NCBI GenBank assembly: GCA_024137785.1
Contig: JAHRHZ010000021.1
Span: 36,801,691 to 36,865,690 of the forward strand
Reading direction: 5' to 3'
DNA length: 64,000 nt
Source of the DNA: Ginglymostoma cirratum
Taxonomy: Eukaryota
Shown: positions 4,744-64,000 of the stretch, piece after piece
Layout: each line of letters opens with the position of its first letter
Numbering within the stretch: the stretch's first letter is position 1
Made by a program: the position numbers and the translations under genes
Notes under the pieces: generated by a model
Seen by the model: only the letters and a program-made list of their open reading frames with translations
Told to the model about the DNA's origin: nothing
The model's database searches: none

Positions 4744-4852
4744 GGAGATAGCAAGAACTGCAGATGCTGAAGTCAGAGACAACACAGTGCGAAGCTGGAG
4801 GAACACAGCAGGCCAGGCGGCATCAAAGGAGCAGGAATGTTAACATTTCAGA
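4744..4852 (-). mobile_element. Diverged Penelope terminal-repeat copy
   Basis: gctggaggaacacagcaggccaggcggcatcaaaggagcagg is similar to 5819-5925. Confidence 0.65.
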
Positions 4853-5399: not shown

Positions 5400-6500
5400 C
5401 CTTTTGGCAATTAAAGTTGTGCAGAGTGCAGCATACCACTAATGATATGAGACAGTGTGCCTGGAGCATACTGTGTGGCACCACCTCACCAGTCAGGAGG
5501 GATCAGAATCTCATTTTCAGGAGGCCTACAGTCTGCTTGACAAAGATCCTTGTGGAAATTTGTGTGAAGTTGTATCTCTCCTTGAAGTTAGGATGAGAAC
5601 AAGCTGGATTTTAAAGGGTTATCCCTTGTCATCCAGCAATAAATGTTATATGAACTGAGAGCATTGAAAGAAGCTGACACCTTTGAGACATCCAGGATGT
5701 GTCATGGCAGGTGCCTAGATATTGAGCACTAACTTGCATTGTCCGTTGTGGTCTCAAACGATTGGTCCATTAAGGGATCCTTTTCTATTGATGAAAACTG
5801 CTGGTTATTGGTAGGATGAGATAAAAGGTACTGCAGGTGCTGGAGAATCCGAGATAACAAGGTGTGGGGCTGGATGAACACAGCAGGCCAAGCAGCATCA
5901 TAGGAGCAGGAAAGCTTGACGTTTCAGGCCTAGACCTTTCATCAGAAAAAAAAGGCATAAAACATGCATAAAAGAGGCATAAAACAACCTTAAAGTGACC
6001 TATTCTTAGGATGACTGATTTTTTTCTGATGAAGGGTCTAGGCCCCAAACGTCAAGCTTTCCTGCTCCTATGATGCTGCTTGGCCTGCTGTGTTCATCCA
6101 GCCCCACACCTTGTTATCTCGGTTATTGGTAGGATGTTCTGACTGTGCTTCGAACCAGTAGGAAACCAGTGATCAGTGAAATCTGAATGCCTTTACTGCC
6201 CGTCTCACCTTGTTAAAAGAGGAAAGAGAGAAATTGATGGGCTGTGGTGAGGAGGGTAACAGTGGCTTCCCGGATACAAGACTGAGTTGTGAAATAGCTG
6301 CAAAATGATACAGAAGTCCCCAGGAGTTCGCAGAGATGATCTGCAAGGCTAGAAATTCAGGGCAGCAGGAACCTTTAGAGCTACCCGGATAGGATTGCCA
6401 CTCAATCTTTGCAGCGACAGCTTCTTGTCTAGCTGCTGGTATATGTATCTAGTGGTGGGTTCAGACATCCTGAGGCATTACCTATGCTGTCACTCACTTA
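5400..6500 (-). pseudogene. PIF/Harbinger (HARBI1-like) DDE transposase fossil, interrupted by the composite Penelope insertion
   Basis: Minus-strand fragments PVALKVPAALNF, LLDDKG*P, ERYNFTQISTRIFVKQTVGLLKMRF and CCTLHNF, with frameshifts. Confidence 0.7.
5819..6120. mobile_element. Composite insertion: inverted pair of Penelope terminal repeats around a captured local sequence
   Basis: Minus copy 5819-5950 and plus copy 6020-6120; 16-nt TSD ggttattggtaggatg at 5803-5818 and 6121-6136. Confidence 0.85.
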
Positions 6501-9976: not shown

Positions 9977-12583
9977 CAGCCCTGCTGGGTCTTCACCGTC
10001 CCCCCAGACCTCCCCTTCAGTGAGGATGAATAGTCAGTCCTCAGTAACGGGCTCACCGTTATCCCCCTCCACCCAAACATCGACAAATACCGCTCACGCT
10101 TGGACGTTGAACAGTTTTTCCGCCGCTGCCGGCCTCGCCTCCGCGCTTACTTCTTTAATCGTGAGGCTAACCCTCCCTCTACTGACCCCTTCTCCCGCCT
10201 CCAACACACCCCTTCCTCCTGGACACCACCCCAAGGCCTCCTACCCTCCCTCGACCTCTTCATCTCCACCTGCCATCAAGACATCAATCGCCTCAACCTC
10301 TCCACTCCTCTCACCCACTTCAACCTCTCCCCCACAGAACGTGCAACCCTCCGCTCCAATCCCAACCTCACCAGAAAACCCGCGGACAAGGGAGGCACAG
10401 TTGTAGTATGGCGCACTGACCTCATATCACCGAGGCCAGACGCCAGCTCTCTGACACCGCCTCCTACCGCCCCCTTGATCATGACCCCACCCCTGACCAC
10501 CAAAAAATCATCTCCCAAACCATCCACAACCTCATCACTTCAGGTAACCTCCCACCCGCAGCCTCCAACCTCATCGTTCCCCAACCCCGCACCGCCCGTT
10601 TCTATCTCCTTCCCAAAATCCACAAACCTGACTGCCCTGGTCGACCCATTGTCTCCGCCTGCTCCTGCCCCATTGAACTTATCTCCAATTATCTTGACTC
10701 CATTTTCTCCCCCTTGGTCCAGGAACTCCCCACCTACGTCCGTGACACCACCCATGCCCTCCACCTCCTCCAAAACTTCCGATTCCCTGGTCCCCAACAC
10801 CTCATCTTCACTATGGACGTCCAATCCCTGTATACTTGCATTCCCCATGCGGATGGCCTAAAGGCCCTTCGCTTCTTCCTGTCCTGCAGGCCCGACCAGT
10901 CCCCCTCCACTGACACCATCATCCGCTTAGCTGAACTCGTCCTCATCCTTAACAACTTCTCCTTCAATTCCTCCCACTTCCTACAGTCAAAGGGGGTGGC
11001 CATGGGTACCTGCATGGGCCCACGCTATGCTTGCCTCTTTGTAGGATAACTGGAACAATCCATCTTCCAAAGCTACACTGGCCCTATCCCCCACATTTTC
11101 CTCCTTTACATCAATGACTGTATCAGCGCCGCCTCGTACTCCCATGAGGAGCTCGAACAGTTAATCCACTTCACTAACACCTTCCACCCCAACCTTAAGT
11201 TCACCTGGACCATCTCCGATACCTCTTTCTCCTTCCTGGACCTCTCTGTTTCCATCTCTGGCAGCCACCTGGAAACCAATGTCCATTTCAAGCCCACCAA
11301 CTCCCACAGCTACCTAGAATACACCTCCTCTCACCCACCTTCCTGCAAAAATGGCTGTCCCCTATTCCCAACTCCTTTGCCTCTGCCGCATCTGCTCCTG
11401 AGACGAGGCATTCCACTCCCGGACATCCCAGATATCCTTGTTTCTCAAGGACCACAACTTCCCCTCCACAGTGGTCGAAAACACCCTCAACCTTGTCTCT
11501 CACATTTCCTGCAACTCATCCCACACACCACCTCCCTGCAATAACAACCAAAACAGAATCCCCCTCGTCCTCATGTACCACTCCACCAACTCCGGATCCA
11601 ACGCATCATCCTCCGGCACTTCTGCCATCTGCAATCTGACCCCACTACCAAAGACATTTTTCCCTCCCCACCCTTATCTGCTTTCCGGAGGGACCACTCT
11701 CCGTGACTCCCTTGTCCGCTCCACACTCCCCAGCAGCCCTACCACCCCCGGCACTTTTCCCTGCAACTGCAGGAAGTGCTACACCTGCCCCTACACCTTC
11801 CCCTCAACCCCATCCCAAACCCCAAGAAAACCTTCCATATCAAACAGATGTTCACCTGCACATCTGCTAATGTGGTATATTGTATCCGCTGTTTCCGATG
11901 TGGCCTCCTCTACATTGGGGAAACCAAGTGGAGGCTTGGGGACCGCTTTGTGGAACACCTACTTTCGGTTTGTGACAAACGACTGCACCTCCCAGTCGCG
12001 AACCATTTCAACTCCCCCACCCACTCCTTAGACAACATGTCCATCCTGGGCCTCCTGCAGTGCCACAACGATGTCACCTGAAGGTTGCAGAAACAACACC
12101 TCATATTTCGCTTGGGAACCCTGCAGCCCAATGATATCAATGTGGACTTCACAAGCTTCAAAATCTCCTATCCCCCTACCGCATCCCAAAACCAGCCCAG
12201 CTCGTCCCCACCTCCCTAACCCGTCCTTCCTCCCACTTATCCACTCCTCCCATCTCAAGGCCCACCCCCATCTCCTACCTACCAGCCTGCCCCCGCCTCC
12301 TTGACATGCCCATCATCTCTGGACTGACCTATCCCCTCCCTAACTCCCCACCTACATTCACCTTTCCGGGCTCCATCTGCACCTCTTTGACCTGTCTGTC
12401 TCCTCTCCACCTATCTTCTCCTTTATCCATCTTCTGTCCACCTCCCCCCTCTCCCTATTTATTTCAGAATCCACTTCCCCTGCCCCATTTCTGAAGAAGG
12501 GTCTAGACCCGAAACGTCAAGCTTTCCTGCTCCTATGATGCTGCTTGGCCTGCTGTGTCCATCCAGCTCTACACCTTGTTATT
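9977..12583 (+). mobile_element. Penelope-like retroelement (Neptune-like), 5'-truncated and degenerate: RT + Cys-rich linker + GIY-YIG endonuclease + C/T-rich tail + terminal repeat with hammerhead motif
   Basis: Peptides KPADKGG, MDVQSLYT, GVAMGTCMGP, YIND (decayed YIDD), FPCNCRKCYTCP, NVVYCIRC...LLYIGETK..LGDRFVEH; frameshifts and stops (e.g. TAA at 11047). Confidence 0.9.
12488..12521 (+). ncRNA. Minimal hammerhead ribozyme motif in the Penelope terminal repeat
   Basis: ttt-CTGAAGA-A-GGGTC-ta-GACCC-GAAAC-GTC-aag; predicted cleavage after C12518. Confidence 0.75.
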
Positions 12584-12799
12584 TCAGGTGGTCTAATTGG
12601 TTACAACCTGCTTGGAGGCAGGTTGCCATTATCACTGCCAATAAACAAACCCTGCACCCTCAACAAATCCTGCTTACTCCAATATATCTCAAAAGATGGC
12701 AATATGCTGGCAAACCAGCACTCTGACACATAGAAGGAAATTATCAGCCCAGTTGTCTCCTGCACCACTTCTGTAGTCAAAAGAGAACTTGGCACACAC

Positions 12800-15403: not shown

Positions 15404-15862
15404 TTATTTGCAAACAAACTGATCAACTATTTGTGTGCATTTTTTGCATTTGACGTAACAGCACCAATGGAATTTACAATGGCATCTTTCAACTTTCGTG
15501 GTCTTGAACTGATCATAACCCCGTCCGCAGCACATTAGCTCACAACCATCCATTCCCTCAGAGGTCTTGTTACAGAGGCGGCCCGTTGTGCCCAGGGAGC
15601 CTGTGGTCTTATTCTTAACACAGTAATCAGGGCTCTGATCGAGATAAACTAGATCATCTGCAGTGGGAGGGTTGAAGCGGCTGTTTACTAGCTCCAGCTT
15701 CCCTTTGCGGTTAATTTTCATGGCAGCAGCGCTGTCATACTTTTCTTTCAGCAGATCACCCACTTTCCGGAAATCAGCCAGTTGAAGCCAGCAAGTCTTC
15801 AAGCTGCAGGAGCCTGAAACACCGTGACACTTGCATGCCACATCCGCAAGATTATACACAGC
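15404..15862 (-). CDS. wnt5b: Wnt-5b last coding exon ([19 protein letters not shown]...DQFVCK*)
   Basis: 459 nt; acceptor ttttttcacag|GCT; [10 protein letters not shown] lipidation motif and Cys-rich C-terminus; [11 protein letters not shown] is Wnt5b-like; spliced total 1080 nt = 359 aa + stop. Confidence 0.96.
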
Positions 15863-15997
15863 CTGTGAAAAAAAATGAAAGACAGAAGATTTACATCTCT
15901 AGAATTAAATTTCATTTGCTAAGATAAATACCACACTTTGCAATTAATGTTTAACAGCTCTGCTAATTCCAGGTAAACAAATTGTGAACCACAATTT

Positions 15998-16377
15998 GTA
16001 TCAGAGATAAAAGGCATCTGCAGTACCTTTTATCTCTGATACAATTTTAACCCCACTGCGAAGCCTCTTCTAAGGATGCCTACCCTGAAGAAGTTACCCT
16101 CCTCCCTCCGGACAAACCTCAGGGAATTTCTCTCCCACTGCAACTCTCTCATACACCTTTACTGGCTCCATCCCCACCTCTTCGACTTGTCTGCCTCCTC
16201 TCCACCTATCCTCTCCTCTATCCATCCCCTATCCGCCTCCCCCTCTCTCCCTATTTATTTCAGAACCCTCTTCCCCTCCCCAATTTCTGATGAAGGGTTT
16301 AGGCCCGAAATGTCAAGTTTTCCTGCTCCTATGATGCTGCTTGACCTGCTGTGTTCATCCAGCCCCATGCTTGTTAT
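15998..16377 (+). mobile_element. Rearranged non-autonomous Penelope derivative in the last wnt5b intron
   Basis: 16-nt TSD ttgtgaaccacaattt (15982-15997, 16378-16393); 19-bp hairpin at its 5' end; tail and terminal repeat similar to 12355-12583. Confidence 0.8.
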
Positions 16378-20935: not shown

Positions 20936-21181
20936 TGTAATTTCTTTTAAAAATAAGGATCTTCTAACCAGTTTCTTATGATTTCACCTTGCTCATTGTA
21001 GAATGAAAAGTTCTAAAGTCTCTTGAGAATTTGGTAGATCAACAGAATGGTGGAAGCAGGTTTAATTATCCCTTTTCAGAAAGAAATTAGATAAGCACCT
21101 GAAGAAGAACAAAAGAATTGTAGAGATACAGGGAAGAGGCAGGAAACAATGCAGAGAGACAGTATAAACATGACAGGCCAA

Positions 21182-21577
21182 CCTCCCTAACCTGTTTTTC
21201 CTCTCACCTCAAGCCACACCCCCATCTCCTATCTACTAACATCATCCCGCCCCCTTGACCTGTCTGTCCTCCCTGGACTGACCTATCTCCTCCCCACCCC
21301 CCCTACCTACACTCACCTTTACTGGCTCCATCCCTGCCTCTTCGACTTGTCTGCCTCCTCTCCACCTATCCTATCCTCTATCCATCCTCTATCCACCTCC
21401 CCCTCTCTCCCTATTTATTTCAGAACCCTCTTCCCCTCCCCCATTTCTTGAAGGGTTTAGGCCCGAAACGTCAAGTTTTCCTGCTCCTATGATGCTGCTT
21501 GACCTGCTGTGTTCATCCAGCCCCATGCTTGTTATCTCAGATTCTCCAGCATCTGTAGTACCTTTTATCTCTTTATT
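21182..21577 (+). mobile_element. 3' fragment of the Penelope-like element (tail + full terminal repeat, hammerhead core damaged)
   Basis: Similar to 12210-12583; CTGATGA reduced to cttga; possible TSD acaggccaa at 21173-21181 and 21578-21586. Confidence 0.8.
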
Positions 21578-22280
21578 ACAGGCCAAATGATATCCACTGT
21601 GCTTTAGATAATTCTCACATTCTATAATTACTTTACAAGGGTAAGATTCTCTCCTTCTAGGACCAAAAATACTTATGGTACTCAAGTGATGTTTCACACA
21701 CACCCAAGACTGAAAAGCTATTGAATTGTAAGAACTCATTCGCCTGTAATGGTAGATATGCAGTAATACCACAGTGAATCCTTCATAGGGAGAGCAGGCT
21801 AATCTACAAGGCAAGAGCAGATCATAACATCACTTGGTCCAATGATCACAACAATAGCAATTATGTCCAGCCTACAGAAGTTGCACACTCCTGCTCTACG
21901 TTTACTATTACATTAACAAAAACAATGATTCAATCAGCACCTAATAAATGTCTCAATGTGTGTAATCCCATGAGAAGTTATAATTTCAGATCTTGGAATA
22001 CACAATGCAAACCCTAAGCCATATCAAAACATAGTTGGTCCCAGATAGACTGCATCCAGTATGTAGTAATATGTATCACATGATAAACATGATAGTGTTT
22101 AAAAACTAAAAGTTCTTTCAGAGAGAAAAATGGACAGAAGGAAAAGGTGCTAAAAATAAATGTAAAATTGAAAAATCAAAATAGGTAGGTAGCAGCGCAT
22201 ACCCTTCCAATACTAATCTGCCTAAAGGAATATTTAACCGGTAAAAATCTTAAAGAAAAATGAAATTCCCTGGTAAGTAC

Positions 22281-28789: not shown

Positions 28790-29200
28790 GAATTTATTTA
28801 GCACCTTTTAACATAATAGTGGAATGTGCAAGATAGGTGGGTTTGTCATGGGAAATGCAAGGTTACAGGGATAGGGTAGAGAGTCTGGGTGGGATGCTCT
28901 TCGGAGGGGCAGTTTGAACTTAATGGGCTGAACGGCTGTTTCCACACTGTAGGGATTCTGTGATTCTGTGATAAAATTTCACAAGGCGCTTCACTGGAGA
29001 AATATAAAACAAAATGTGACTTTGAACCACAAACGCAGCAGAATTTTGGATGATCTCAAGTTTACACAGGGTAGAATGTGGGAGACCAGCCAGGAATGCA
29101 TTGGAATAGTCAAGTCTAGACATAACGATGGCATGAATGAGGGTTTCAGCAGCAGATGAACTGAGACAGGTCAAAATCAGGTAATATTATGCAGGTGGAA
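28790..29200 (-). mobile_element. L2 LINE 3' fragment, interrupted by a plus-strand SINE/CR1 tail (~28818-28970)
   Basis: AAETLIHAIVMSRLDYSNAFLAGLP...IQNSAA; the inserted piece ends in (gattctgt)n. Confidence 0.7.
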
Positions 29201-32047: not shown

Positions 32048-34740
32048 AGTCATCGAGTTATAGAGTCATAGGGTTATACATCACGGAAACAGACCCTTCG
32101 GTCCACCTTGTTCATGCCGACCAGATATCCGAAATAAATCTAGTCCCATTTGCCAACATTCAGCCCATATCCCTTTAAACCCTTCCGATTCATATATAAT
32201 CCAGATGCCTTTTAAATGTTGTAATTGTACCAGCTTCTACCACTTCCTCTGATTCCATACACGCAACACCCTCTGCATGAAAAAGTTGCCCCAAGGTCCC
32301 TTTTAAATCTCTCCCCTCTCACCTCAAACCTATGCCATCTAGTTTTGGAATCTGCTACTCTGGGAAAAGGCCTTAACTATTCACCCTATCTACACCCCTC
32401 ATGATTTTATAAACTGCTATAAGGTCACCCCTCAGCCTCCATCACTTCAGGGAATATAGCCCAAGTCTATTCCGCCTCTCCCTAAAGTTCAGGCCCTCCA
32501 ACCCTGACAACATCCTAGTAAATCTTTTCTGAACCCTTTCAAGTTTCACAACATCCTTCCTATAGCAGGGAGACCAGAATTGCATGCAGCATTCCAATAG
32601 TGGCCAAATCAATGTCCTGTACAGCTGCAACAATGACCTCCCAATTCCTATACATCATGCACTAACCAATAAAGGCAAGCATATCAAGCACGTTCTTCAC
32701 TATCCTATCTACCTGTGACTCCACTTTCAAGGAACTATGAACCTGCACTCCAAGGTCTCTTTGTTCAGCAACACTCACCAGGACCTTAACCATGAGGTGT
32801 ATAAGTCCTGCCCCAATTTGCCTTACCAAAATGCAGCGCCTCACATTTATCTAAATCAAACTCCATCTGTCACTCCTTAGCCCATTGACCCATCTGATCA
32901 AGATCTCGTTGTACTATGAGGTAGCCTTCTTCGCTGTCCACTACACCTCCAATTTTGGTGTCATCTGCAAACTTACTAACCATACTTCCTATGTTCATAT
33001 CCAAATCATTTATATAAATGACGAAAAGCAGCAGACCCAGCACAAATCCTTGCAGCACACCGGTGGTCACAGGCCTCCAGTCTGAAAAGCAATCCTCCGC
33101 CATCACCCTCTGTCTTCTACCTTCGAGCTAGTTCTGTATCCAAGTAGCTAATTCTCCCTCTATTCCATGTGATTGAACTTTGCTAATCAGTCTACCATGA
33201 CGAACCTTGTCGAATGCCTACTGAAGTCTATATAGATCGTGTCCACCACGCTGCCCTCATCAATCCTCTTTGTTACTTCTTCAAAAAACTCAATCAAGTT
33301 CATAAGACATGATTTCCCACACACAGAGCCATGTTGAATGTCCTTAATGAGTCCTTGTCTTTCCAAATACATATAAGTCCTGCCCATCAGGATTCCCTCC
33401 AACAACTTGCCCACCACCAAGGTCAGGCCCACCAGTCTACGGTTCCTTGGCTTTTCCTTACCACCTTTCTTAAATAGTGGCACCATGTTAGCCAATCTCC
33501 AATCTTCTGGCATGTTTTCGGTGGCTATCGATGATGCAAATATCTCAGCAAGGGGCCCAGCAATCTCCTCCCTTGCTTCCCACAGAGTTCTAGGGTACCC
33601 CTGATCAGGTCTGGGTATTTATTCACATTTACGCATTTGAAGACATCCTGCACCTTCTCCTCTGTAATGTGGACTCTTTCCAAGATGTCACTATTTATTT
33701 CCCCACATTTTATATGTTCCATATCCTTCTCCACAATAAACACTGATGCAAAATATTCATTTACTACCTCCCCCATCTCCTGCGGATCCACACATAGGCG
33801 ATCTTGGTGATCTTTAAGGGGCCCTATTCTCTCTCTAGTTACCCTTTTGTCCTTAATGTATTTACAGAATCCCTTTGGATTCTCCTTAACCCTATTTGCC
33901 AAAGCTATCTCGTCCAAATTTTGCCCTCCTGATTTCCCTCTTAAGTGTACTCCTACTGCTTTTAAACTCTTCTAGGAAATCACTGGATTTCTGCTGTCTA
34001 TACTTGACATACAATTCCTTATTCTTGACAAAAATCTCAACTTCTCTAGTCATCCAGCATTCCCTGCACCTACCAGCCTTGCCCTTACCCTAACAGGAAC
34101 ATACTGTCTCTGGACTCTCATTATCTCATTTTTGAAGGCTTCCCATTTTCCAGCCATCCTTTTACCTACGAACTTCTGCCCCCAATCAACTTTTGAAATT
34201 TGTAGCCTAATACCATAAAAATTGGCCTTATTCCAATTTGGAACTTTAACTTTTAGATCAGGTCTATCCTTTTCCATCACTATTTTAAATCTAATCGAAT
34301 TATGCTCACTGGCCGCAAAGATCTCCCCCATTGATGCCTCAGTCACGTGCCCTGCCTTATTTCGCCAGAGTAGGTCAAGTTTTGCACCTTCTCTAGTAGG
34401 GATATCAACATACTGAATCAGAAAATTTTCTTAACAAATTAACAAATTCCTCTCTATCCAAGCCTTTAACACTATGGCAGTCCCAGTCTATGTTCGGAAA
34501 GTTAAAATCCCCTACCATAACGACCCTATTATTCTTACGGATAACTGTTACCCCCTTACAAATTTGTTTCTGAATTTCACGCTGACTGTTGAGGGTCTAT
34601 AGTACAATCCCAATAAGGTGATCATCCTTTTCTTATTTCTCAGTCCCACCCAAATAACTTCCCTGGACGTATTTCCAGAAATATCCTTCCTAAATATAGT
34701 CGTAATGTTATCCCTAATCAAAAACGTCACTCCCCCTCCT
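32048..34740 (-). mobile_element. CR1-clade LINE (same family as 22281-24740), 5'-truncated and degenerate
   Basis: GLYYRP and SEHN (APE), PEDWRLANMVPLFKKG, GVLQGFVLGLLLFVIYINDLD, KFADDTK, LYRTLIWPLLECC; (agtcatag)n tail. Confidence 0.9.
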
Positions 34741-39700: not shown

Positions 39701-40177
39701 AATCAGCCATGAACACGCTTGCCTTTAACATAGAAGGAACGTCAATTATGAAGCAGCTCAAGTTGCTTTGCCTTGGCACAAGTGACCTAAGGAACTCAAT
39801 CGGCAAAATCCTGGGTCTTCAACAAATCATAACCAATTTGCTTTGTGCAAGGAAAGGCTCCAAACAGATAATGATTTCCCCACTGACCATACTCACAACT
39901 CAGTCATCACCTCACTCACTACACTCACTACTCCGATTCGGACCTTGCTTCACCACAATGTGATTTGCAACTACTGATTTATTCAAGATCACCTCATCTT
40001 GAGCTTTGGTGTCCTAGTTCCTAAATAAACTATTACCCCCTCTCATCTTTGTCACCAGACCACCATCCAACTCTGCACTGATCTTCACTTCCACAAGTAG
40101 AAAAATCCAAATGACACAGCCTTGGAAAGATATGGCAGACAACTAGTTTAGCCAGCCACCATCTGCCAGAGACTGTG

Positions 40178-40273
40178 ATAATAAGGTGTAGAGCTGGATG
40201 AACACAGCAGGCCAAGCAGCATCAGAGAAGCAGGAAGGCTGACGTTTCGGGCCTGGACCCTTCTTCAGAAAAG
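40178..40273 (-). mobile_element. Solo Penelope terminal-repeat insertion with an intact hammerhead motif (40241-40268)
   Basis: Minus strand CTGAAGAAGGGTCCAGGCCCGAAACGTC; 14-nt TSD tgccagagactgtg at 40164-40177 and 40274-40287. Confidence 0.85.
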
Positions 40274-41087
40274 TGCCAGAGACTGTGCTTTCTTTTCACT
40301 TTAAAAGTGCAGTTGTAAGTTAATTTAGGGACAGATATGGAAGGAAGTTTAATTAAAGCATGGTAGGAATGATGGATGCTAAGTGATAAAAGTAGGTGAT
40401 CAGAAATTACCTTGTCAATAATACGACTGGACAAGCAAGTGGCCATTCACCCAAGATGTGTCTGACCCCTTAAAAGACGATCAGGTTCTGCGGTGATCTG
40501 CTAAACTGTTCATTTGTCTTGGATCATTCAGGAATGCAATGACAATCTCTGGCTTCTTTTCTCTGCTGCAAACTGTCTTCTTAACTCCTTCTCCTTTGTC
40601 TTCTCCAACAATGATCAAGGAACTCATGAACTTTATTGTAACTGCAATCGAGATAACTTAATCAGCAGTCTCTGTAACATCACTCTTTAACGGGTCTGCC
40701 TGGCTATGCTTTCATAAATGCCACACTCTGCTCTAGCCCTGAACTCGAGCTTGTCTCCTTCTCTCACTTCAGCCCCTCTCCAAAGTCAGCTTGTCAATGA
40801 GTCCCACCTCCTGCTCTTCAATCCTTTATAAACTAAGCTGCTGATCACTCCACTTCCCCTCCCACCCTGACATTAGCTGATATTGCAAACTGTTTTTTCA
40901 GGTATTGTCCCTCTCGCATTTAAATTTGCAGCGATCACCTTTCTGCTAACCCACCACTTTTGTGTACTATCATGCCATTTCCAAACTCCCTTGAATCCCT
41001 CTAATCAAGTTTCTGCACCGTCACTTGACTGACTTCACCTTGTTGGTACATTTATGTAATTAATTTGTACGTATTATCAGCATATTT

Positions 41088-42316
41088 TGTGAAGTTTGCG
41101 TTAAGACAATCTTATTATTGTTGTCTTTTTAAGTGACAAATACTACAAAGTAACTTTAAGAAAGAACATATGGAATGCATTGGAGTTGTAACTATGTGTA
41201 TTTGGACACTGAACCTATCTAGCTTAGCAGGAAAGGAAAACCAAAGCTACAATTATCCAGGAAATTGGCCTCAGGATTTTATATTCCGGGAACTCCTATC
41301 AAAAGATACAAGTTATAGTTAGCAGTTAGAAAAGGCACCAAGGCTGCCAAGCTAATTGAGACTGAGGTCTAGGTGTTGGTGATACAGATTAAGACTAGCT
41401 TGTCGGTGGGAAGCTGGGAACACTATTCACATTGATCAAGAGTTGCAAATATTTGGTTCGAGGGGTATAAAAAGGGCTGCATCACTGAGGATTTTGCACT
41501 CGTCAAGTGATAACATGTCACAAGGGACAATTGACAGGAGAGAGTTGGTTCTGGGCATTTTCAAGGAAGCTGGCATTTGTACGGCAGTCAACAAATATTT
41601 GTCAAAGGTTTTCTGTAAGAACCCAGTATTAGGCTTTAGTAATTAATACAGCTGGAGGATTTCTACATTGCGATAAGGCCCAGTATCGAAATCGATGGCT
41701 CCACTACATACTGGATTGTCAGAGCTATAGTAATTGCCTAATGAGAAAGTGAATGGAAACCATATAACTACAACAAACAAGGACTCGTTTAGTCAGTTGA
41801 AGTCTAACTTGGGAGAATCACTGGTAAAGTACAATCTTTCTCATTTTGGGAAAGCTGCAGTTTTTGTGAGGAAGTTAGTTCAACCAAAGAGAAAGACAGG
41901 GAGAGAGAAAACACTCAGAAGGCAGCTGCCCAACACTACCTACAAAAGTTAAGGTAGACTGGAAGTTCAAGCCTAAGGTAGACTGGGAAATTGTGGGTTT
42001 AAAAAGGATTCACAAATCATGAAGTCTTAAGGCTACAAAATAGTTTGTATGTATGTTAGAGTTAAGTTGGCTATGCTAAAATATTGAAGTATGTTATGAG
42101 TCAAGAGAGCAGGTTCAAGGAACCAGGAAGACCCTAGTAGTCTCAAGATTCGTAAGTGTTGAGTGTGTATATTGTGCCATGCCTTGAACAATGAAATTTT
42201 AAATATCAATTCTTATTGTTCAATAAAGTTTGTTAATCTGTATTCTAAGTTTTTGATTGTCTTTTTTGCCAACAAAGTTATTCCCTAACAAAAAGTTTCT
42301 TTCTCTGGGGTTCACA
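41088..42316 (+). mobile_element. Candidate solo LTR (~1.2 kb)
   Basis: TGTGAA...TTCACA inverted termini; TATAAAA at ~41466; AATAAA at ~42222; no clean TSD. Confidence 0.45.
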
Positions 42317-42399
42317 ATAAGAATCCAAATCCCTATTCACTGTACCAAAACAGCTCTTACGTAAGACACACATAACCTTCTTTATAAACATCACAAAGG

Positions 42400-42810
42400 T
42401 TAATTTACCTTACTTATCCTTTTCAACCTATCTGCATCCATTGACATAGTTGACCATATCATCCTCTTCCAACATCTTTGCACTGCCATCCAACACGGCA
42501 GGACTGCTCTCATCTGGTTCCATAATAATATCTTGAATCACCATCAGAGAATAATTTGCAAAGGTTTATTTTCCTGCTCCAACACCCTTGCCTTTGGTAT
42601 TCTCTAAAGGTCAAACTTTGGTGAATTCCTCTTTCTCATCCATAATTTGCATCCATAATGGCATTGTTCTAAGACATGATGTGGTTTTCACATATGCACA
42701 ATGTGGTTTTCACATGTGCACTGACAGCATACAGCTCTACCTCAGCATTCCCCCTCAGTTGTCAACTTATCAGACTTCTATCTGACACCAAGTACTTGAT
42801 AAGCAGCACC
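42400..42810 (+). mobile_element. L2 RT fragment
   Basis: LSASIDIVDHIIL-like and FHMCTDSIQLYL motifs. Confidence 0.55.
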
Positions 42811-44544
42811 ACTATTTCATTCCCCTAATCAAAGTACTGGTATTGATGCATTAAAAGACCAAGGGATGGTAAAATATAGTGATGTGACCAGCAACTAAAG
42901 CCAAGGACAAGAGCTGTAAATGTGCCTGAGCTTTTAACAGATGTAGTTACTTCTGTAGGATCAGCTTCATGTCCTGCACTAACACCTCAACAGCCTTTCA
43001 TGCAGACAAGTCTGATAGCAAAGGTCCCTACTATCTCTGCGCTACACCCATTAGTGTTACAACTGCATCAGTTAGACAAAAGAATAAAAAATTGGAACAC
43101 TGAAACCTGAAAGGAAGCTCGAAGAACAGAAAGTTAAATTAGGCAAAGACATTGTCTAGAATAAAATGAGCTCTTTGGCAAGATCATTCATACATAAAAG
43201 TGCCTGTGATTTTGAGGGAAAAACTAGTAGATTATCACCACAACCACTCAGGCCTCAGACAAACATTTTGGCAGTAAATTCACCTGATACAGTAACGGAC
43301 CCTACTTCCTGGCTACTAATGAAGCAAATCACAAGGTAAATCTTAAAAAAATGCATGACCATTAAGTTCAAACCCACAACATGTCTCATTGGCATCTATC
43401 CCTTTCATAGGTAAGATCAGAAATTGAATCTCATGAATAAATTGAATATTAAATATTTGTTCTGCTAGTCTTCATGGAAGAATTTAACAAGAAAGATAAC
43501 AAATTGTAAAAGTTTACTTGGTTCATAGGAACAATCTTACCAAATGTTGGAATCACTTTCATCCAAAGCAGTTTTTCACATAATACCTAAGATCGACTTT
43601 GGCAAATTTAAACTCAAATTTAAATGCAGTTTTAAGGTATTGTTTTCCATTGTATTTTTTTCACCAGGCCTTTAGATTTTGAAAACACTATAGGTAGTTG
43701 TGAAGAGTTTGAGAAAGAATAGGATCACTCCTTACTTATTAAATTCAAATACAATCCCAAATGAAAAATGTGGAAGTAAGAAAAGAAGCTCTAGCAAAAT
43801 GTATTTTCAAATCCATTTACAGCTGCAAGTGTTTTAAGGTTCACTAATCAATAAGCTGACCAGAGCCTCAGTGCGTATGAAAAACCTGAACTGTACAAGC
43901 AACCTTTGCTTTCTGGCTAATGCCTATTGTAGTTGCCCAATCTTGTCAGGTTAAAATTGACTTGTTTCTAAACAAATTGCCAAAAACATGTACAACCTGA
44001 TGTAAAGCACCAAGCAATGATTAGATTTAAACTCAAAACTCATTTGTTACTGAAAAGTATTGACCTTCTAATACATGAATATAGTTATGGCCAATCTAAA
44101 CTTAAATGCATTGACCAACGTTGTTTCTTCATACATTTTGCGTAACAATACAATCAAATGTTGGAACTTAGCTGAGAAGACGTTGAATGGAAAAATGCTT
44201 TTCCACTGTCATTTTTCTGATATTTGTCACAACGGGACAATCAGTACTGTGAATTTAGACCATCAATTCCATCATCTGATTTTAATACCCATGACCCTCA
44301 TTGATAAAATGGTTTCACAAAGGAAGAAACATGAACCTAAAATGGCTGCAACCTGACCAGTTCAAGCCAAGGTCATGAAACGAATGTAAGAGAAAGACAG
44401 TCTGTGCCAAAGTTCACATCTTATCAACGGCACTAAAACTCAGTGATGAAACCCCTTGCGTCCAATTTTTGATTTATACATTTCTGAAAATTTCACACTT
44501 TAGGATGAAGGTTGCCAGCAGATCATCCATCTTGAAAAGCAGTC

Positions 44545-45150
44545 ACAGGAATATAGGAACAGGAGTAGGCTATTCAGCCCTTCAGGCTTGCTCCAACATT
44601 CAATGAGATCATGGCTGATCTGTGACCCAACTCCAGATATCTGCCACTAACCCATCTCCCTCAACACCTTTGCTTAGCCAAAAATGGTCTACCTCAGATT
44701 TGTAATTAACAACTGAACTGGCAGCAATCGCCGTTTGTGGAAGACAGTACCAACTGCTATCATTCTTTGTGTTCTTAAGTTCTTCCTAGCATCTCTCCTG
44801 AATGATCTGGCCTTAATTCTCATACAATGCCCCCTAGTTCTAAAATACCCAACAAGTAGAAATAGTTTATCTTTACCTATCCTGTCTTTTCCAGTTAATA
44901 TCTTGAACACTTCAAATGGAGCATCCCTTAACCTTCTAAATTCTAGAGAAACTCAGCCTAGTTTGTATAATCTCTCTCCATAACTTAACTCCTGAAATCC
45001 AGTATATGCTTTCTAAGGTATGATGCCCAGATCTGCTCACATCACTCCAGGTGAGGTCTAATCAAGAGTTGTGCAGAACATCTGCATCCTTGTACTCCAA
45101 CCTTCCAGATATAAAGGCCAGCGTTCCATGAGCTTTCTCGATTATTGATG
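44545..45150 (-). mobile_element. CR1 LINE 3' fragment
   Basis: VFKILTGKDRIGKDKLF...RTRGH; tail ataggaacaggagtaggctattcagccc. Confidence 0.7.
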
Positions 45151-46099
45151 CCAGACATGGAAATACACAAATGAACTGTATTTCAGGCAAACAACTGTAA
45201 GGTTCTTGCTCCCATATTTCTTCGTCATCAACTCAAAAGGTAAAACCAAAGGTAAGGCAAACCAAATAAATATCCATTAATGAAAATGCAAGAATTTTAC
45301 AAATTTACTACTAAAAATACTACTGCTGAGGATACATCAACTACATGTCCATGGGCTCAGGTTTAATATAATAACTCAAGATTCAAGTACTTTTAAAATT
45401 ACATATTCTTTAACTTATTATTGTACTAGGTACTCTCACCTTTTTAAACATTAAACTCACATTTGCATGTGCATTTGTTGTCATGTTTTATTATTTTTTC
45501 CAGAGTTAATCAGCATTAAAATTCCACTTTCTTTCACTCAAGAAAACCTTGTAAGTGACACCTTCATTGTGATTCAGTGAACTATGTTTTAATTGAACTG
45601 TGATATAGGTGCATGCTATAAACATTACAAATCTTTGTTGCAACAGATGGAGGAAGTTAAAAAGAGGGGAGCCAATTCAGCCCTCCTCATCTGGTCATAA
45701 TGTAATTGTTGTTTATTAAAGAAACTAAAAATGGTGTCAGTTTGAAAGAGAAGATATTCAATTCTGTAAAGATCAATAGTATCCCTGAATTTTAGGAATA
45801 TTTTATAAATGAGCATAGGATAAAGCTCCCAAGAAAGTTCCAAGCCACACACCACCCTGTCATGGAGCTGTATCATTGTTTCCTTACTGCCACTGAGTCA
45901 ATATCATGGAACTCCTTTCCTAAGAGCACTTTGAGTGTTCCTACATTCCAAGGACTTTGTGATTGAAGAAAGCAACTCACAATCACTTTCTCCAGTCAGT
46001 TAGGGATGGGCAATAAATCCTGGCTAACCAGCGACACCCATATCCTGAGTGAATGATAAAAAAATTAAAACAAAATAAAGAGAAAAAAGTTAGAATATG

Positions 46100-47310
46100 T
46101 GAGAAAATTAGCAAGAAATATAAAAACAGTTAAAACTTCTGGAGGCATTAAAAAAGAAACTGAATATCTGAAGTAAGTTTTGGGCTCTTAGGCATTGAGA
46201 ATGAGCAGCTGATATAAATGCAAACAAGAAAATAGCAGAAATTTTGAACAAGTATTTGTGGTAGAATGTACAACACTCATCCCAAGAGAAGTATAAAATC
46301 ACAAGGCAAAACAAGGAACATACAACAAATGATCACTAGAGGAAAAGTATTAGGAAAACTAGCAGAACTAAAAGTCCCTTGAACCCAATGGCCTACATCT
46401 TAGGGTATTATAGGAATTGGCTGCAGAGATAATGAATATATTGGCTGTAATTTTCCAAAATTCCCTACATTCTGGAAAGTTTCAGGGGTTTGGAAAGTTG
46501 CAAATATAACACTACTATTCAAGAAAGGATGACAACTGAAAGAACAGTTGGTCAGCTGGTCTAACTTTCTTTTTATTATTTCATGTGATGTCAGCATCAC
46601 TGGTAAGACTACATTTTCTAGCCATCCCAAACTGCATTTGAATTGAACGTTGCTACAATATTTCAGAGGTGAGTTTAGGTTTGGAGTCACACATAGGCCA
46701 GACCAGGGCAAAGAACATGAATGAAGTAGATGGGTTTTTACAACAATTGATGATGGCTGTCATGGTCACTATCACAGAGGGCAGCATGACGTTTACAAAA
46801 TCCTCATCTTCTCAGGTACATTCATCATGGGATTATGAAAGGGGAATATTATCTGATTAAAAAAAAAAGAGTTTTTTTGAGGAGTAACAAGCAGGGTTGG
46901 TAAAGGGAGATTGGTAGATGCAGTGTAATTAGATTCCCAAAAAGCATTTGAATACGTGTCACATAGAAGGGCCACTGCAGAAGGTAAGAGCTCATGATGC
47001 TCGGGGTGCAGATGGGGAGGAGGGGTGATATTTTAACATTAACAGAGGATTGGCTCATTCATAAGAACAAATTCAGGATGAAGTGGCTATTTTCAGGTTG
47101 ACAAACTGTATAGGTGAGTTGTTGCAGGGATCAGTGCTGTGGCCTTAGTTATTTATGTTTTATATTAATGACTGGATGAAGACACTGATTTTGATTGACA
47201 AGAAAGTTGAGGGTAGTACTAAAGTTGAGGCGGGAAAGTGGAGTTAAGGCCACATTCAGAGCAGACTTGATGGTCTGAAAGGGCCTATCCTGTCTCCTAT
47301 TACTTATCTC
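46100..47310 (+). mobile_element. Fragmented CR1 ORF2 remnants with a nested repeat
   Basis: WKVANITLLFKKG, FFEGVTSRVGKG, DFQKAF-like gattcccaaaaagcatttga, QGSVLWP. Confidence 0.6.
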
Positions 47311-47502
47311 TTCTAAGCAGAAATATCCTACAATTAAATATTAGGAAGACTGAAATCAGTATTTTCTGTTTCTACTCCAAATTTTGTTTCCTAATTGTCA
47401 GCTTCAATTCCCTCACTGACAGCAGTCAGTGATTAAACCAGTTCATGACACTGGCATCACACTTGTTCCCAAAAGGAGCTTGCAACCTAATACAACAAAG
47501 AT

Positions 47503-47601
47503 TTTTTCTGATGAAGGGTCTAGGCCCGAAACGTCAAGTTTTCCTGCTCCTATGATGCTGCTTGGCCTGCTGTGTTCATCCAGCCCCACGCCTTGTTATC
47601 T
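47503..47601 (+). mobile_element. Solo ~100-nt Penelope terminal-repeat insertion with an intact hammerhead motif (47508-47535)
   Basis: CTGATGAAGGGTCTAGGCCCGAAACGTC; 12-nt TSD tacaacaaagat at 47491-47502 and 47602-47613. Confidence 0.85.
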
Positions 47602-47649
47602 TACAACAAAGATGGACCCGTTTCTATGTGTGTAACAATGTCTGAATTC

Positions 47650-48270
47650 ATCCCATCTCAACTCATCAGCTGCTGAAACCTTCACCCATATCTTTGTTAC
47701 CCCTAGACTGGACTATTCTAACACAATCCTGCCCAGTCTCCCACATTCTACTGTCCATAACTTGATGTCGACCAAACTTAGCTGCATGTGCCTTAACTCA
47801 CAGCAAGTCCCATTCCGTTAACATCCCTGAAATTGTATGACTTACACTGATTCCTAGTCAAGCAATGTCTTGATTTTAAAATTCTCATGCTTGTTTTCAA
47901 ATCACTCCATAACCTTGCCCCTGCCAATCTCTATAATCTCCTCTGGTTCAGCAACTCTGACATATCCGTGCTCCTCTAATTCCGACCTATTATGCATTCT
48001 CAAATTCAATCACTCCATCATTGGTGGAGCCCTCAGATGTCTAGGTCCCAAGTTCTGGAATTCCCTCCCTACTTCTCTCTGCCTTTCTGCCTCACTTTTA
48101 TCCTTCCAGACACTCCTTAAAACCCAGCTGATCAAGCATATGGATGTTTAACCTAATGTCACCTCCTGTAGGTCAGTTTCAAACTTTGTTTTGTAATGCT
48201 CCTGTGAAGTGCCCAGAGGCATTTCATTACAGCAAAGGTGCTATATGAGTATAAGTTGTTGTTGCTGCTG
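47650..48270 (+). mobile_element. L2 LINE 3' end
   Basis: AAETFTHIFVTPRLDYSN, FKILMLVF, GPKFWNSLP; 3' end aaaggtgctatatgagtataagttgttgttg. Confidence 0.75.
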
Positions 48271-48379: not shown

Positions 48380-48830
48380 ACACCAAGACTGCCTACTTCC
48401 ATTTCCAAGTGTCGTTTGACTGCAATCTTTCCTCAGTCCATCTCTTGCCTAAATTCTCATTCATGCCTTTGTTACTTCACAGCTTGCCAATTCCAATGCT
48501 ATCCTGGCTTACCTCCCATCTTTTCCCCTGGAGAAATTTCATTCAAAACTCTGCTGTCCACATTTCAATTTGTTTGCAAGATCATCATTTTACCACCCCT
48601 GCCCTTGTTAATGCTTACAGGCTCCCCAGCTCATTAATGTCCCAATTTTAAATTGTGACTTTCATTTTTAAATTCGTCAATGGCCATGCCCCCTCCTATC
48701 TCTGACAATTCATCCTACAAGTTTGGGAGATATCTGTACTCCTCTAATTGTGGTGCATTATACATCTTTGATATTAATCTCTCCACCACTGGTCACCATG
48801 CCTTTCAGCCACCTTGGCCCTAATTTCAAT
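48380..48830 (+). mobile_element. Diverged L2 fragment
   Basis: LIHAFVTSQL-like and FIQNSAV motifs resembling 47650-48000. Confidence 0.55.
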
Positions 48831-52420: not shown

Positions 52421-52529
52421 TTCCTGTTGACAGTCTGTCCGCCCTTTTATTTCCCACTCTATCTCACACACTTGGGTCCCAGTTCCATATGGTCTGACCT
52501 CATTGATATATAATCATACATACATACAA

Positions 52530-52838
52530 GAATCATACAAGCCCTACAGTTTGGAAATAGGCCCTTCAGCCCTACAAGTCCACACCGACCCTCAGAGCAT
52601 CCCACCCAGACCCATCCCTCTATAACCCACACACCCCTCAACACTATGGGCAATTTAGCATGGCCAATCCACCTAGCCTGCACACCTTTGGACTGTGGGA
52701 GGAAACCGGAGCACCTGGAGGAAATCCATGCAGACACGGGGAGAATGTGCAAACTTCACACAGACAGTTGCCCGAGGGTGGAATCAAACCTGGGTCCCTG
52801 GCACTGTGAGGCAGCAGTGCTAACCACTGACCCACCAT
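52530..52838 (-). mobile_element. tRNA-derived V-SINE (HE1-like), near full length
   Basis: Head ggtcagtggttagcactgctgcctcacag...ggtttgattcc (Pol III A/B boxes); V-domain gggtttcctcc-like...ggattggccatgctaaattgccc; CR1-like tail. Confidence 0.85.
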
Positions 52839-53769
52839 TATATGAATTCATTATACTACAATACAGCCCAAGAAGATTTATTAACATCAGAGTTAAGACT
52901 GTTACAGGACACATGAGTCTGATAACTTCAGCCTAAACAATGTCAACTTTATTTCTATCACAACTTTAAAATTAGTGTTAAAAGTTCTTTCTTTTTGGAC
53001 AGAGACAATTCTTTGCAAATGTTAAGAAATTCAGGTGCTTAGTTACAGCATTTTGTGTTCAGATATGTGTATCTAGAGATTAATTCCTTCTTGACCTCAG
53101 AATGTTGTAGTGAAAGTAGTTTAATTATGTAACTGACGCACTGCTAAAAAGTGCTTATCACTGTTCTCACCATTGATTTAGAATAAAATTGCTACAATTT
53201 TGTGAAAAGTGAAATTTCAACATTTTTGTTCACATATGGATAGTTGAAAGGAGAAATCCTTATTCCCAGTCTAAGCCAGACTGTTGGAAGCACAATATTC
53301 AGACTCTCCCAAAACTGTAAATGCAAGAAAAGCACAATAAACTATTGTGAACAAGTGGCTTAAAATTGTTATTCCATTTAGACCTTACACTGTGTATTTG
53401 CTAAATTTATAACATAATTGCATAGAAAAACCTTAATTGTCCAATTTAAAAGATTAACAGAACACTTCTTTCTTATTGTATTGAAAAGGAGTTTCCTTAA
53501 CACTAGAACAGTTGTGATCACTTGTGCAGCTCTTGGCAAAATCGATGCATGTGTTTCTTATTACCTGAAGTTATTTTATAACTTGAACACCTTGCATCAG
53601 TATATACAGGAAATCTGTTTGCCTTCTGGTCAGGGGCAATGACAATTAATCCCCTAATGACACAACCTCAGTGACATCATATTCTACTTGTTACAAGTGT
53701 TTAACATATTTAGTTAAGGTTTGCTCTGGAACAATCAACTGTTAAATGATAATGTGCGCTAGAAACAAT

Positions 53770-61330: not shown

Positions 61331-63519
61331 AGTCCTTATTCCTATGAATGCAGCACAAATGGTGCTGTGCAAATACAGGAGATTATAAGTACTGAATGAT
61401 TACTGATACGTTGTACCTCACATCCTACATCACCCAAGAAGACAGCATTTTTCAATACCAGGTGGTCTACCTAGTCTTATGGCAGAGTTGTTTCCCTGAA
61501 AGATGATAAATGAAAAAGCACACTATTCAGTACCAACACCATTCAAACAACAATCAGATGTGACAGGGAAGGTGGGCCAGCCTTTGGATGGTAATCCAAG
61601 TCAGATTATTTTAAATGATAACTCCTAATACCTGCTCCAGCCTCAATAATCTTCCCTCACCTTTAAAGATACTTGCTCGATGAAGTGCTAGACAGTTTAA
61701 TTGATGCTAGCCACCCAAGAAATTGGCTCCTGATGATGAATTTGGGCAATAAACAGTATGATTAGCAATGTTTGGCTACAAACTAAAGGAAATAATCAGG
61801 CATCACAAAGTCAGTGTTCTGCCTGCATTGTAAACAACATGTTTTCAGAGGCTCTCCAACTCAGCATCATGGCTTCAATGCTTAGATTGTGGGTGGCAAT
61901 ACTTTATCATTATTGAATCTCTGACCTATGTTCTATTTTCCACTAACTCTCCTATCCAAAGTGAAGCAGTGGTAAGTGGTCCCTCATCTTCAACCTTGCG
62001 CTTTGCTCAACCAATTCTGTTGCATCTCTCTCACTTTAAGCCCCAATCTCTACCCTGAATTTCTTCTTAATATATCCTCCTTTATTTCAAACCTGAATCT
62101 CTAGTCTAGACTGCTGTCAATGAGTTTAACCTTCATCTAATGGATGTCTGTCCGTTGATTTCACTGCCCTCCTTATACCTTTGTGCACCATACAAACCTA
62201 TGCATGGCCATGCTGTCATTCTTAGCTTCACCAAATTCCTTAATGAACTTGCCCTTCCATTCTCTCTAATCCCTGGCACTACAGATGCCCCTAATCCCTA
62301 ACATTAATCGTTATTCTACTGACACCAGTCTGTACACCCCTTCCTGTTTGCCTCACCTTTGGACAAACTGCCAGCTTCAAACCCCAAGGTTTCAAACTTC
62401 ATCTATAAAATGTTGTATTGTTACCTCCCCACCCTCCCTTAAAACCCAACTATTGTTTGATCACCCCTCATGATTAGCATCTATTTTCCAATACGTCATT
62501 CGAAGTGCTTCTTTTTCCCATATTAAAAGCTTTAAATAAACGCAAATGGTTATTCTTGTTGATTAAATTTCTGATAATAATTTGCGACAAACTATTCTGG
62601 AGAAAGAAGAGACAAGACATTGATTCTAAGACTACAAGGTCATAATATTTTTGAAGATGTTTAACCATTTGTTAAATGGCTTGGTGATAAACAATAGGGG
62701 GAACTGGGAAGATTTTGTGTTCGATGTTTTACTTTTAAAGTGTTATTTGATCTCACTAATCTAGTAATGCAATAGTATAACTGGCCTGAAGTTAAGGAGT
62801 GGCAAAATGAGCCAAAGTTCACACTCCTGATTACTGTCCAGAGGCTGACACCCTCCACAACCTGAAAAGCAAACACAAAGGAAAAGAAAAGATCACACTC
62901 AGTTGTGGTGCCTCCCATTTATTGTCAATAGCCTGTTAAAATTCATGTCTGGGTTTAGTCATGCAACTGCATCTCAGCACAGTCCATAGCTGTGAGTAAG
63001 GGAGGGGGTTGGAAGGGAAACAAATAATCAAGGTAAATAGATGACTAAAGTGATCAAAATGAAAATATTTGCATATATGCTTTATATTAATATGCTTTCA
63101 CTTCCTACTTGTCTGTTAATTATGCAATCATTGCACTGAAGGTACAGGGAATTGGATGCAGCACTTACTTTATTTATGTTTTAATTTTTTAAGGCCCTTT
63201 CCTTAAGGCACTATTTCTCACTGGTGTACGGCCTCATGCAAGTCAGTTACTTCTGAAGTTTTGTCCATGCTATTGTTCATTCATGAGCTCTGACAATTAA
63301 TGTCAACAGGCGATCCAACGATTGACCAAATTAGAGCCAATTTTAACATCTCTTCTTCCAACGTTCAGCAGCATGTACACATTGCAGAGCTGCCTGATAG
63401 TGATTAAAAGTAGGAATTCAAGTCAATTATTTTGCCTCACTAATCAGTGGTCACTGAGATCAAATGTATTTACATTCCCAGCGGTTATCAGCATTAACAA
63501 CAATTTGTATTTTATATTA

Positions 63520-63597
63520 GATAACAAGGTGTAGAGCTGGATGAACACAGCAGGCCAAGCAGCATCAGAGGAGGAGGAAAGCTGACGTTTCAGGCCT
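63520..63597 (-). mobile_element. Truncated Penelope terminal-repeat copy
   Basis: ataacaaggtgtagagctggatgaacacagcaggccaagcagcatc...gctgacgtttcaggcc matches the other copies; the CUGANGA half is missing. Confidence 0.75.
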
Positions 63598-64000
63598 TGA
63601 AGGGTCAAATTGAGCGAATGTGATATATATGAAATTCCAGGAAGTCTTCAACAAGGCACTGGACAGGAAACTATTAGAAGAGATTAATCAGTTTGGAACA
63701 GAGGAGAAATAACAATAATTCATAAATAATCTAAAACTTTTAGTCTGTGAGGAATTATTCAGAAATATTTTGAAACAGTTCACATTTTTCTTTTAATTTG
63801 AGAATAGTACAAAGATGCCACAGAAGACAACATTTTAGAAGAAATTAAGCAAGTTGCTCCTTTTTTAAAAAAAGAAATTTAAATGGAACTATGGGCTTTA
63901 ATTTGACTTTGCCTGCAATGGAATTGTTAGAAGTGTAGTTCGGGTGGCAATATAAACACCCAAACTCTCAATGTCCAACACCAAAAAAGTGAGAAACAAA

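Follow-up and report, generated by a model that had tools for sequence, protein, structure and literature searches.

Dispersed minimal hammerhead ribozymes of Penelope-like elements (PLEs), lying singly or on opposite strands, are already known from animal genomes (PMC4209133), and so are solo pseudo-long terminal repeats (pLTRs), inversions and one-sided tails (PMC3846280, PMC8557442). In vitro, no activity was seen for single minimal hammerheads (PMC4209133), PLE start sites have been placed within the pLTR (PMC2377424, PMC8557442), and the regeneration of the pLTR has been called unexplained (PMC2377424). In vitro work on an anole PLE showed internal initiation by the reverse transcriptase (RT) at a pair of neighbouring sites just beyond the hammerhead, independently of cleavage, and hammerhead cleavage itself was assisted by protein and dispensable for insertion (PMC11167929). 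In other retroelements, an untemplated 5' G has been read as a copied cap (L1 and SVA; PMC4859970), and the R2 RT adds untemplated bases and jumps between templates (PMC8857657). Here, we analyzed a 64,000-nt stretch of the nurse shark Ginglymostoma cirratum (assembly GCA_024137785.1, contig JAHRHZ010000021.1, positions 36,801,691 to 36,865,690; hereafter the window), in which two ~100-nt insertions, each consisting of little more than a hammerhead, are flanked by target site duplications (TSDs).

To judge by its sequence, the ~100-nt unit is the terminal repeat (pLTR) of an abundant Neptune-type PLE. Our preferred reading, to which we assign a probability of roughly two in three, is that the solo copies arise when the PLE RT, starting inside the RNA, runs off what we infer to be a capped 5' end after ~100 or 130 nt.

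The solo insertions and their parent element

The two solo insertions and their flanks are as follows:

40164..40177, no strand: left copy (14 nt) of the TSD of the minus-strand solo, exact repeat
40178..40273, minus: solo pLTR unit with an extra C, four T and a minimal hammerhead; its 3' end is the putative first RT start site
40274..40287, no strand: right copy (14 nt) of the TSD of the minus-strand solo, exact repeat
47491..47502, no strand: left copy (12 nt) of the TSD of the plus-strand solo, exact repeat
47503..47601, plus: solo pLTR unit with a T-run and a minimal hammerhead; its 3' end is the putative first RT start site
47602..47613, no strand: right copy (12 nt) of the TSD of the plus-strand solo, exact repeat

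An earlier note on this DNA, made from the letters alone, had described two ~100-nt insertions with clean TSDs, and the exact repeats of 14 nt (minus) and 12 nt (plus) bear this out; as a control, at least 12 nt were common to 4 of 3000 random flank pairs within the window. The last bases of the left TSD at 47491-47502 also match the first bases of the element (microhomology). Positions within the unit are counted from the C of CUGA in the hammerhead core (0), with the predicted cleavage following +27; CUGA begins at 40268 in the minus-strand copy and at 47508 in the plus-strand copy, and cleavage is predicted after 40241 and 47535, respectively.

Both solos carry CUGAnGA, a 4-bp stem II and GAAA-CGUC, followed by ~65 nt ending in (C)CTT(G/A)TTAT. 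The core had been called intact, which is right for its motifs but needs qualifying for its architecture, as the hammerhead is of the minimal kind, without a stem III loop and with a stem I of three pairs in one copy and two in the other. All features of a minimal type I hammerhead (CUGAnGA, stem II, GAAA, a loopless palindromic 15.2-16.2, NUH) were present, and an Rfam scan of the window at the gathering score returned no match, hammerhead cores included. In the genome sample described below, the predicted core was intact in 68 of 98 units (CGUC in 45). In folding predictions, neither the two solos (z = -0.31 and +0.66) nor the end of the long copy (z = -0.24) stood out as stable, and the tailed arm of the head-to-head pair had z = -2.19. 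The best predicted folds were not the hammerhead, a hammerhead-like monomer being 7-8 kcal/mol less stable, and they pair the two ends of the unit. At both RT start sites (5818-5950, 47503-47601) the unit ends in a similar CCTT(G/-)TTATCTC motif with predicted pairing to the hammerhead 5' arm, possibly a switch between a ribozyme fold and an RT-ready fold.

The long copy at 9977-12587 contains the RT, a Cys-rich linker, a C-terminal GIY-YIG and the 3' untranslated region (UTR), and then the unit. Protein relatives of its open reading frame (ORF) pieces (10034-12081) carry RVT_1 and many also GIY-YIG, with the closest named ones found in sharks and rays (73-82% identity); an Atlas search returned unnamed or RVT_1/DUF8422 clusters. 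Pfam did not directly recognize the RT pieces, and its direct GIY-YIG match was weak (E = 0.024, below the cut-off). Upstream of the GIY-YIG motif we read by eye a CxC-x2-C-x2-C stretch, and a Cys-rich motif between RT and endonuclease (EN) defines the Neptune-type linker (PMC3846280); by this definition the parent would be classed as an EN+ PLE of Neptune type. The structural traits of PLEs (pLTRs or partial tandems, inverted 5' copies, an optional 30-40-nt tail) all occur in the family. One locus (L190) has the classic layout of a partial tandem, its 3' UTR, hammerhead and tail leading directly into the ORF leader. The unit therefore both closes the pLTR and immediately precedes the ORF. In the two copies that were translated, reading frames crossing the hammerhead are closed after at most ~50 codons. 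The earlier proposal that a Penelope-type RT/GIY-YIG mobilises the unit is supported by the long RT/GIY-YIG copy, the two 3' start sites with the ~33-nt tail, and the TSDs. The N-terminal region of the PLE ORF (L177, L178, L183, L186, L190) contains a variable-length Thr/Ala/Asp/Pro-rich repeat upstream of the RT, recalling the low-complexity inserts of rotifer Penelope ORFs.

The 5' boundary of the unit

For the 4.36-Gb genome, we surveyed 140 stretches of 10 kb together with the window (1.464 Mb, of which 1.082 Mb were readable); 34 of the first 80 stretches were wholly N and later ones were chosen beside readable ones, so that the sample, which includes the window, is not strictly random. 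It held 162 units, i.e., ~150 per Mb or roughly 6x10^5 genome-wide if the sample is typical. Their 3' ends cluster near +93 and at +127 (39 exactly at +127), in agreement with the pair of internal RT start sites by which the PLE tail is defined in vitro (PMC11167929). The 5' end was readable in 127 units, the remaining 35 being censored (24 by N or a stretch edge, 11 by exceeding the reference length). Among the 94 units reaching -2, 38 stop at -4 to -2 and 52 extend past -7. The stop rate per nt amounted to 0.11 at -4 and 0.28 at -3, compared to 0.0009-0.0018 from -8 to -800 (60-200 times the upstream per-base rate), with a shoulder that trails on the downstream side only, where it falls from 0.03 to 0.002. 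Altogether, 40 of the 162 units end at -7 to -2, and random truncation is excluded for this class because the stop rate peaks so sharply at -4/-3. Few of the 127 ends lie at other candidate places: two at the cleavage site (+27 to +29), four at the 3' foot of stem II (+19 to +21), and two and one at other U-runs (+30 to +36 and -40 to -30, respectively). The earlier note had placed a sharp boundary here, attributing it neither to random truncation nor to the cleavage site, and this was confirmed (38/94 at -4 to -2, 2/127 at +27 to +29); its suggestion that the ribozyme fold sets the boundary was not, given the lack of a pile-up at the stem II foot (4/127), a stem I of 2-3 bp and unremarkable z values (-0.3/+0.7).

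The clean TSDs of the two solos recur in this class. Of the 40 copies ending at -7 to -2, 18 have a head-to-head partner, and a TSD of at least 8 nt was found in 11 of the other 22 (9/810 in controls). The corresponding values were 2/25 for long copies and 7/35 for core-truncated copies; here the test has little power, as TSDs are obscured by fuzzy ends, by inverted partners that were missed and by age. Of 14 TSD calls at inspected junctions, two (L152 and the T-run of L157) look like chance. Head-to-head pairs take in 75 of the 162 units; exactly one arm was tailed in 22 of the 24 N-free pairs (p = 2e-5), and a flank word of at least 8 nt was common to both sides in 27 of 39 candidate pairs. 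Young pairs (L004, L005, L008, L009, L016, L026, L027 and others) are often interrupted between their arms by ~400 N, on either side of which the junction is repeated; these may be assembly gaps at palindromes, and such N-filled centres probably make the boundary counts an underestimate.

The T-run at the boundary is three long in 89 of 90 read-through copies. It is 4-9 long in 35 of the 71 end copies having a run of at least three, and longer than three in 1/90 read-through copies (p = 2e-14). As the runs are lengthened at ends, the boundary ends were made by RT and are not later deletions. One way to obtain them would be for the enzyme, while copying a read-through RNA, to stop or slip where it meets either the UUU run or the margin of the ribozyme fold, and the position of the boundary at the 5' strand of stem I and the U-run, the lengthened T-runs, and the predicted pairing of the unit's two ends would all suit such a stall. 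We consider it improbable, as neither the other U-runs (two and one ends) nor the stem II foot (four) shows a pile-up, the obstacle would be a 2-3 bp stem within a monomer fold lying 7-8 kcal/mol below the best fold in stability, and a stall predicts neither an extra G nor efficient jumps from that exact place.

An extra G and same-strand restarts were found in a second set, comprising 60 loci chosen only by their ORF leader (two query loci included; 5 censored, 26 starting further in). Here, 17 of the 29 copies reaching -2 start at -7 to -2, among the leader-bearing copies two begin at +28, and one (L095) starts at the boundary and is flanked by a TSD. Many are composites, in which the leader or ORF breaks at +398 to +1716 and is followed, in the same orientation, by a unit that begins anew at the boundary. 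Sixteen such junctions, with the restart at -7 to -4 as parsed, were either flush or joined by 1-3 nt of microhomology (9) or carried untemplated bases (7); the base touching the element was G in all seven of the latter (p = 8e-5 against 0.26), in one case preceded by eight A. Loci L001-L030 were excluded from the junction-base counts, as their query included the 47503 flank. Break points recur near +398, +458, +620 and +760, and appear to be independent events because their junction bases differ. A fixed 5' end at about -5 to -3 is common to solos, head-to-head pairs, leader-bearing copies and tandem restarts; the boundary behaves like the 5' end of a template, and it is likely that the PLE RNA has its capped start at this sharply defined common position. 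The sequence there is CC-A-TTT-C, which fits the initiator consensus YYANWYY.

RNA evidence consisted of assembled contigs from 8 runs, two of which (X12, X13) were nearly empty. Loose ends at -3 occur in contigs of organisms A and B, with an unlabelled run of organism F showing 355 of them, and the boundary is therefore not unique to the G. cirratum genome. Furthermore, position 1200 of L190 was joined to its position 708 (L190:1200 to L190:708, i.e., +489 to -3, with two bases between) in runs X4 and X9, from two organisms and two studies, which may represent an old common copy, an amplified derivative or a circle. One RNA contig has a 132-nt back-jump.

An origin like that of retrozymes would involve self-cleavage and circularisation of a short RNA, or else a splice junction beside helix I. 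A circular model has been proposed for PLEs, and an intron ends at helix I in the D. virilis Penelope (PMC4209133); the intact core in 68/98 units and the few copies beginning at the cleavage site (2/127 in the sample, two leader-bearing ones at +28) would be in keeping with this. Such a route is nevertheless very unlikely, since the ends lie mostly elsewhere than the cleavage site, head-to-tail arrays of the unit were not seen in the locus listings (read by eye), no constant upstream exon exists, and single minimal hammerheads did not cleave in vitro (PMC4209133). A splice-junction origin of the boundary was ruled out, there being no AG acceptor.

Origin of the solo copies

The earlier note had regarded the solos as an independent non-autonomous lineage, similar to SINEs (short interspersed elements) or retrozymes. 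When 35 end copies and 49 long copies were placed in one tree, 24 label changes were counted, compared to a shuffled mean of 25.7 (a value as low was reached in 142 of 500 shuffles), and some sequences are identical between the two groups. Each of the six named variants is found in end and read-through copies alike, both window variants occur in units continuing into the leader, and none of the 1485 pairs among 55 end copies had a common 5' flank of 14 nt. Because short and long copies intermix in the tree, a separate solo lineage is not supported; nor is this an under-described family of mobile ribozymes, since dispersed single minimal PLE hammerheads have been described before (PMC4209133). 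The solos are probably a by-product class of the autonomous PLE, with the boundary probably marking the RNA start.

On the lineage idea, solos would themselves give rise to short RNAs, which the PLE protein would mobilise anew in trans, in the manner of a SINE or a retrozyme monomer. Their high number (40/162 units end at -7 to -2), the clean TSDs (11/22 non-inverted end copies vs 9/810 controls) and the end bias of the 40178-type variant (6 vs 2 in the sample, 24 vs 5 among nearest matches) speak in its favor, and an internal promoter, if present, could persist in solos. We still deem it unlikely, because the solos do not cluster in the tree and share identical sequences with long copies, all six variants reappear in read-through copies and both window variants in leader-bearing ones, and no 5' flank is shared among the 1485 pairs; moreover, nothing 3' of +127 is retained in solos, whereas sequence beyond the RT start sites was required in the anole template (PMC11167929), an argument by analogy. 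Composite mini-elements (L191-L250, e.g., L226, L229, L232, L246, L250), which consist of a unit, 400-1700 nt of leader/ORF and another unit without the 3' UTR, have retained the leader, and these could represent genuine non-autonomous derivatives of the PLE.

In the run-off reading that we prefer, transcription would begin at the initiator-like CC-A-TTT just before CUGA, yielding a capped RNA that starts at -5/-4. The PLE protein would nick both target strands about 9-17 nt apart, and RT would be primed at about +95 or +127, i.e., near the RNA 5' end, run off the template's 5' end, slip on the terminal U-run, and perhaps copy the cap (the extra G). Three fates of the cDNA can be envisaged: its end could be joined to the other target end, giving a solo with a TSD; it could be linked to another cDNA whose synthesis was primed at the opposite nick, giving a head-to-head pair with one arm tailed; or it could jump to an internal point or the 3' end of a PLE RNA and be extended, giving a tandem or pLTR-flanked copy. 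Read-through copies would result if RT started within the 3' repeat of an RNA that reads through the boundary, or from a homologous jump. The ribozyme would be carried along because the hammerhead occupies the first 30 nt of the RNA, and such insertions would not depend on its cleavage.

Several points weigh against this account. More than half of the copies that come near the boundary (52/94) read through it and need a second route. The 7/7 G result concerns one junction class, picked after inspecting composites, and when all end copies are counted, G comes first among the non-templated bases in 19/53 (p = 0.07, not significant). In solos, an extra G could also belong to the TSD or stem from a start on the opposite strand that was aborted, and the extra bases there are often the first bases of an opposite-strand start. 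The capped RNA start at the boundary is deduced from genomic copies, the 8 RNA runs having consisted of contigs, and the anole in vitro work concerns a Poseidon element, i.e., a different family. The tree was built from 91 columns and leaves 46 of its 73 forks open, and near relatives are skewed towards end copies: for the 40178 copy, the 30 close relatives retrieved out of 40 scored comprise 24 end copies, 5 read-through copies and 1 unreadable copy, the other copies with at most one mismatch from 47503 (n = 3) are all end copies, and the 40178-type variant in the genome sample numbers 6 end vs 2 read-through copies. This skew fits either sources with two differing repeats or some re-mobilisation of short copies.

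In retroelements with long terminal repeats (LTRs), minus-strand strong-stop DNA is a short first cDNA made up to the RNA 5' end, and its strand transfer regenerates the terminal repeats. We see the odds as even that PLEs in general replicate through such a step, with the first ~100-130 nt including the cap being copied, followed by a jump to RNA or to a sister cDNA. If true, this single strong-stop step would give rise to pseudo-LTRs, partial tandems, inverted pairs and the ~10^5 short hammerhead copies here. The run-off-and-jump account, which was not met in the literature searched (Repbase, Dfam, the 2005-2006 PLE reviews, supplements and non-open papers may describe it), bears on how PLEs rebuild their terminal repeats. 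Since the fixed 5' end, the extra G and the jump junctions name a specific site, cap-copying and template jumping become directly testable, and together they would, if true, explain the abundance of lone, possibly inactive hammerhead motifs in animal genomes.

Other copies in the window and known systems

The window contains 9 clear copies of the unit; in addition to the two solos, the following features were delineated:

4744..4849, minus: older-subfamily copy with the tail, truncated within the core
5818..5950, minus: left arm of a head-to-head pair, with the same 5' boundary and a ~33-nt tail (putative second RT start site)
5951..6020, no strand: 70-nt spacer separating the two arms
6021..6120, plus: right arm of the head-to-head pair, without a tail
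9977..12587, plus: 5'-truncated, frameshifted PLE of apparent Neptune type, ending in the same unit (CUGA at 12491)
16154..16377, plus: 5'-truncated read-through copy, reaching -133 (CUGA ~16287)
21181..21571, plus: 5'-truncated read-through copy with the tail, reaching about -257 (CUGA ~21448)
63519..63600, minus: copy truncated within the core, beginning at +11

The copy at 6020 had been listed earlier as sharing the boundary of the solos, which it does, but it is an arm of a head-to-head pair (5818-6120) that is flanked as one by a 15-nt TSD (5803-5817 / 6121-6135). Within the spacer, ~50 nt (5973-6022) are an inverted copy of 5225-5274, ~600-700 nt upstream, and thus have the appearance of an insertion for which neighbouring DNA served as template where two cDNAs were joined. 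The three longer copies (CUGA at 12491, ~16287 and ~21448) end in the unit and extend upstream into the PLE 3' UTR/ORF. Several unit copies lie near the last coding exon of a Wnt-family gene (15404-15898, minus; Pfam wnt, E = 1e-64). Two decayed ~2.5-kb repeats, 76% alike (22278-24739 and 32061-34560, both minus), contain ORF pieces that resemble, by eye, the RT of a CR1-type LINE (long interspersed element), for which Pfam gave no match. Short dispersed repeats of other families are located at ~28883-29166, 47656-47779, 48432-48556 and 52514-52936, one of them resembling a very common ~300-nt SINE-like repeat found throughout the genome sample.

The unit resembles the minimal-hammerhead pLTRs of EN+ PLEs (PMC4209133) in its loopless palindromic stem III and the extra base before stem II, and there, as here, the motifs were mostly single, being ascribed to truncated PLEs, or formed opposite-strand pairs 100-700 bp apart; unlike here, the available part of that study, which favors a circular template, reports no fixed 5' end, TSDs, extra G, jump junctions or shark example. 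The available portion of PMC6155905 contained no shark data. Neptune-clade PLEs (PMC8557442, PMC3846280) share the single ORF with RT, Cys-rich linker and C-terminal GIY-YIG, as well as 5' truncation, partial tandems, an inverted 5' copy, a 30-40-nt tail at one end and solo pLTRs. For rotifer PLEs, recombination or deletion was invoked to account for solo pLTRs, and self-priming on an antisense template to account for inversions (PMC8557442, PMC3846280), whereas the shark solos have TSDs of their own and a 5' end common to pairs and tandems. In the anole Poseidon element PAc (PMC11167929), two adjacent internal RT start sites likewise define the tail, both target strands are cut and extended, and hammerhead cleavage is unneeded; in contrast to the shark element, its ORF starts within the hammerhead, and the 5' fate of the cDNA was not resolved.

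Metazoan non-LTR retrozymes (PMC7761336, bioRxiv 10.64898/2026.07.22.740005) are likewise non-coding, derived from PLE pLTRs, equipped with a type I hammerhead and present as dispersed monomers, but they are defined by tandem units and by circular RNAs running from cleavage to cleavage. The shark unit differs from them, being single or inverted, keeping both sides of the cleavage site and ending elsewhere. Instead of at least two head-to-tail hammerhead units, we found, by eye, copies that were single, inverted or separated by ORF sequence, and instead of a cleavage-to-cleavage unit, 2/127 5' ends at +27 to +29. A SINE-like family would have its own lineage of source copies, whereas the tree (91 columns) and the sharing of variants revealed none, with a local end bias being seen. 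Compared to the strong-stop DNA of LTR retroelements, finally, the step proposed here would differ in being primed from nicked target DNA, in having variable jump targets, and in that the short product would often be integrated.

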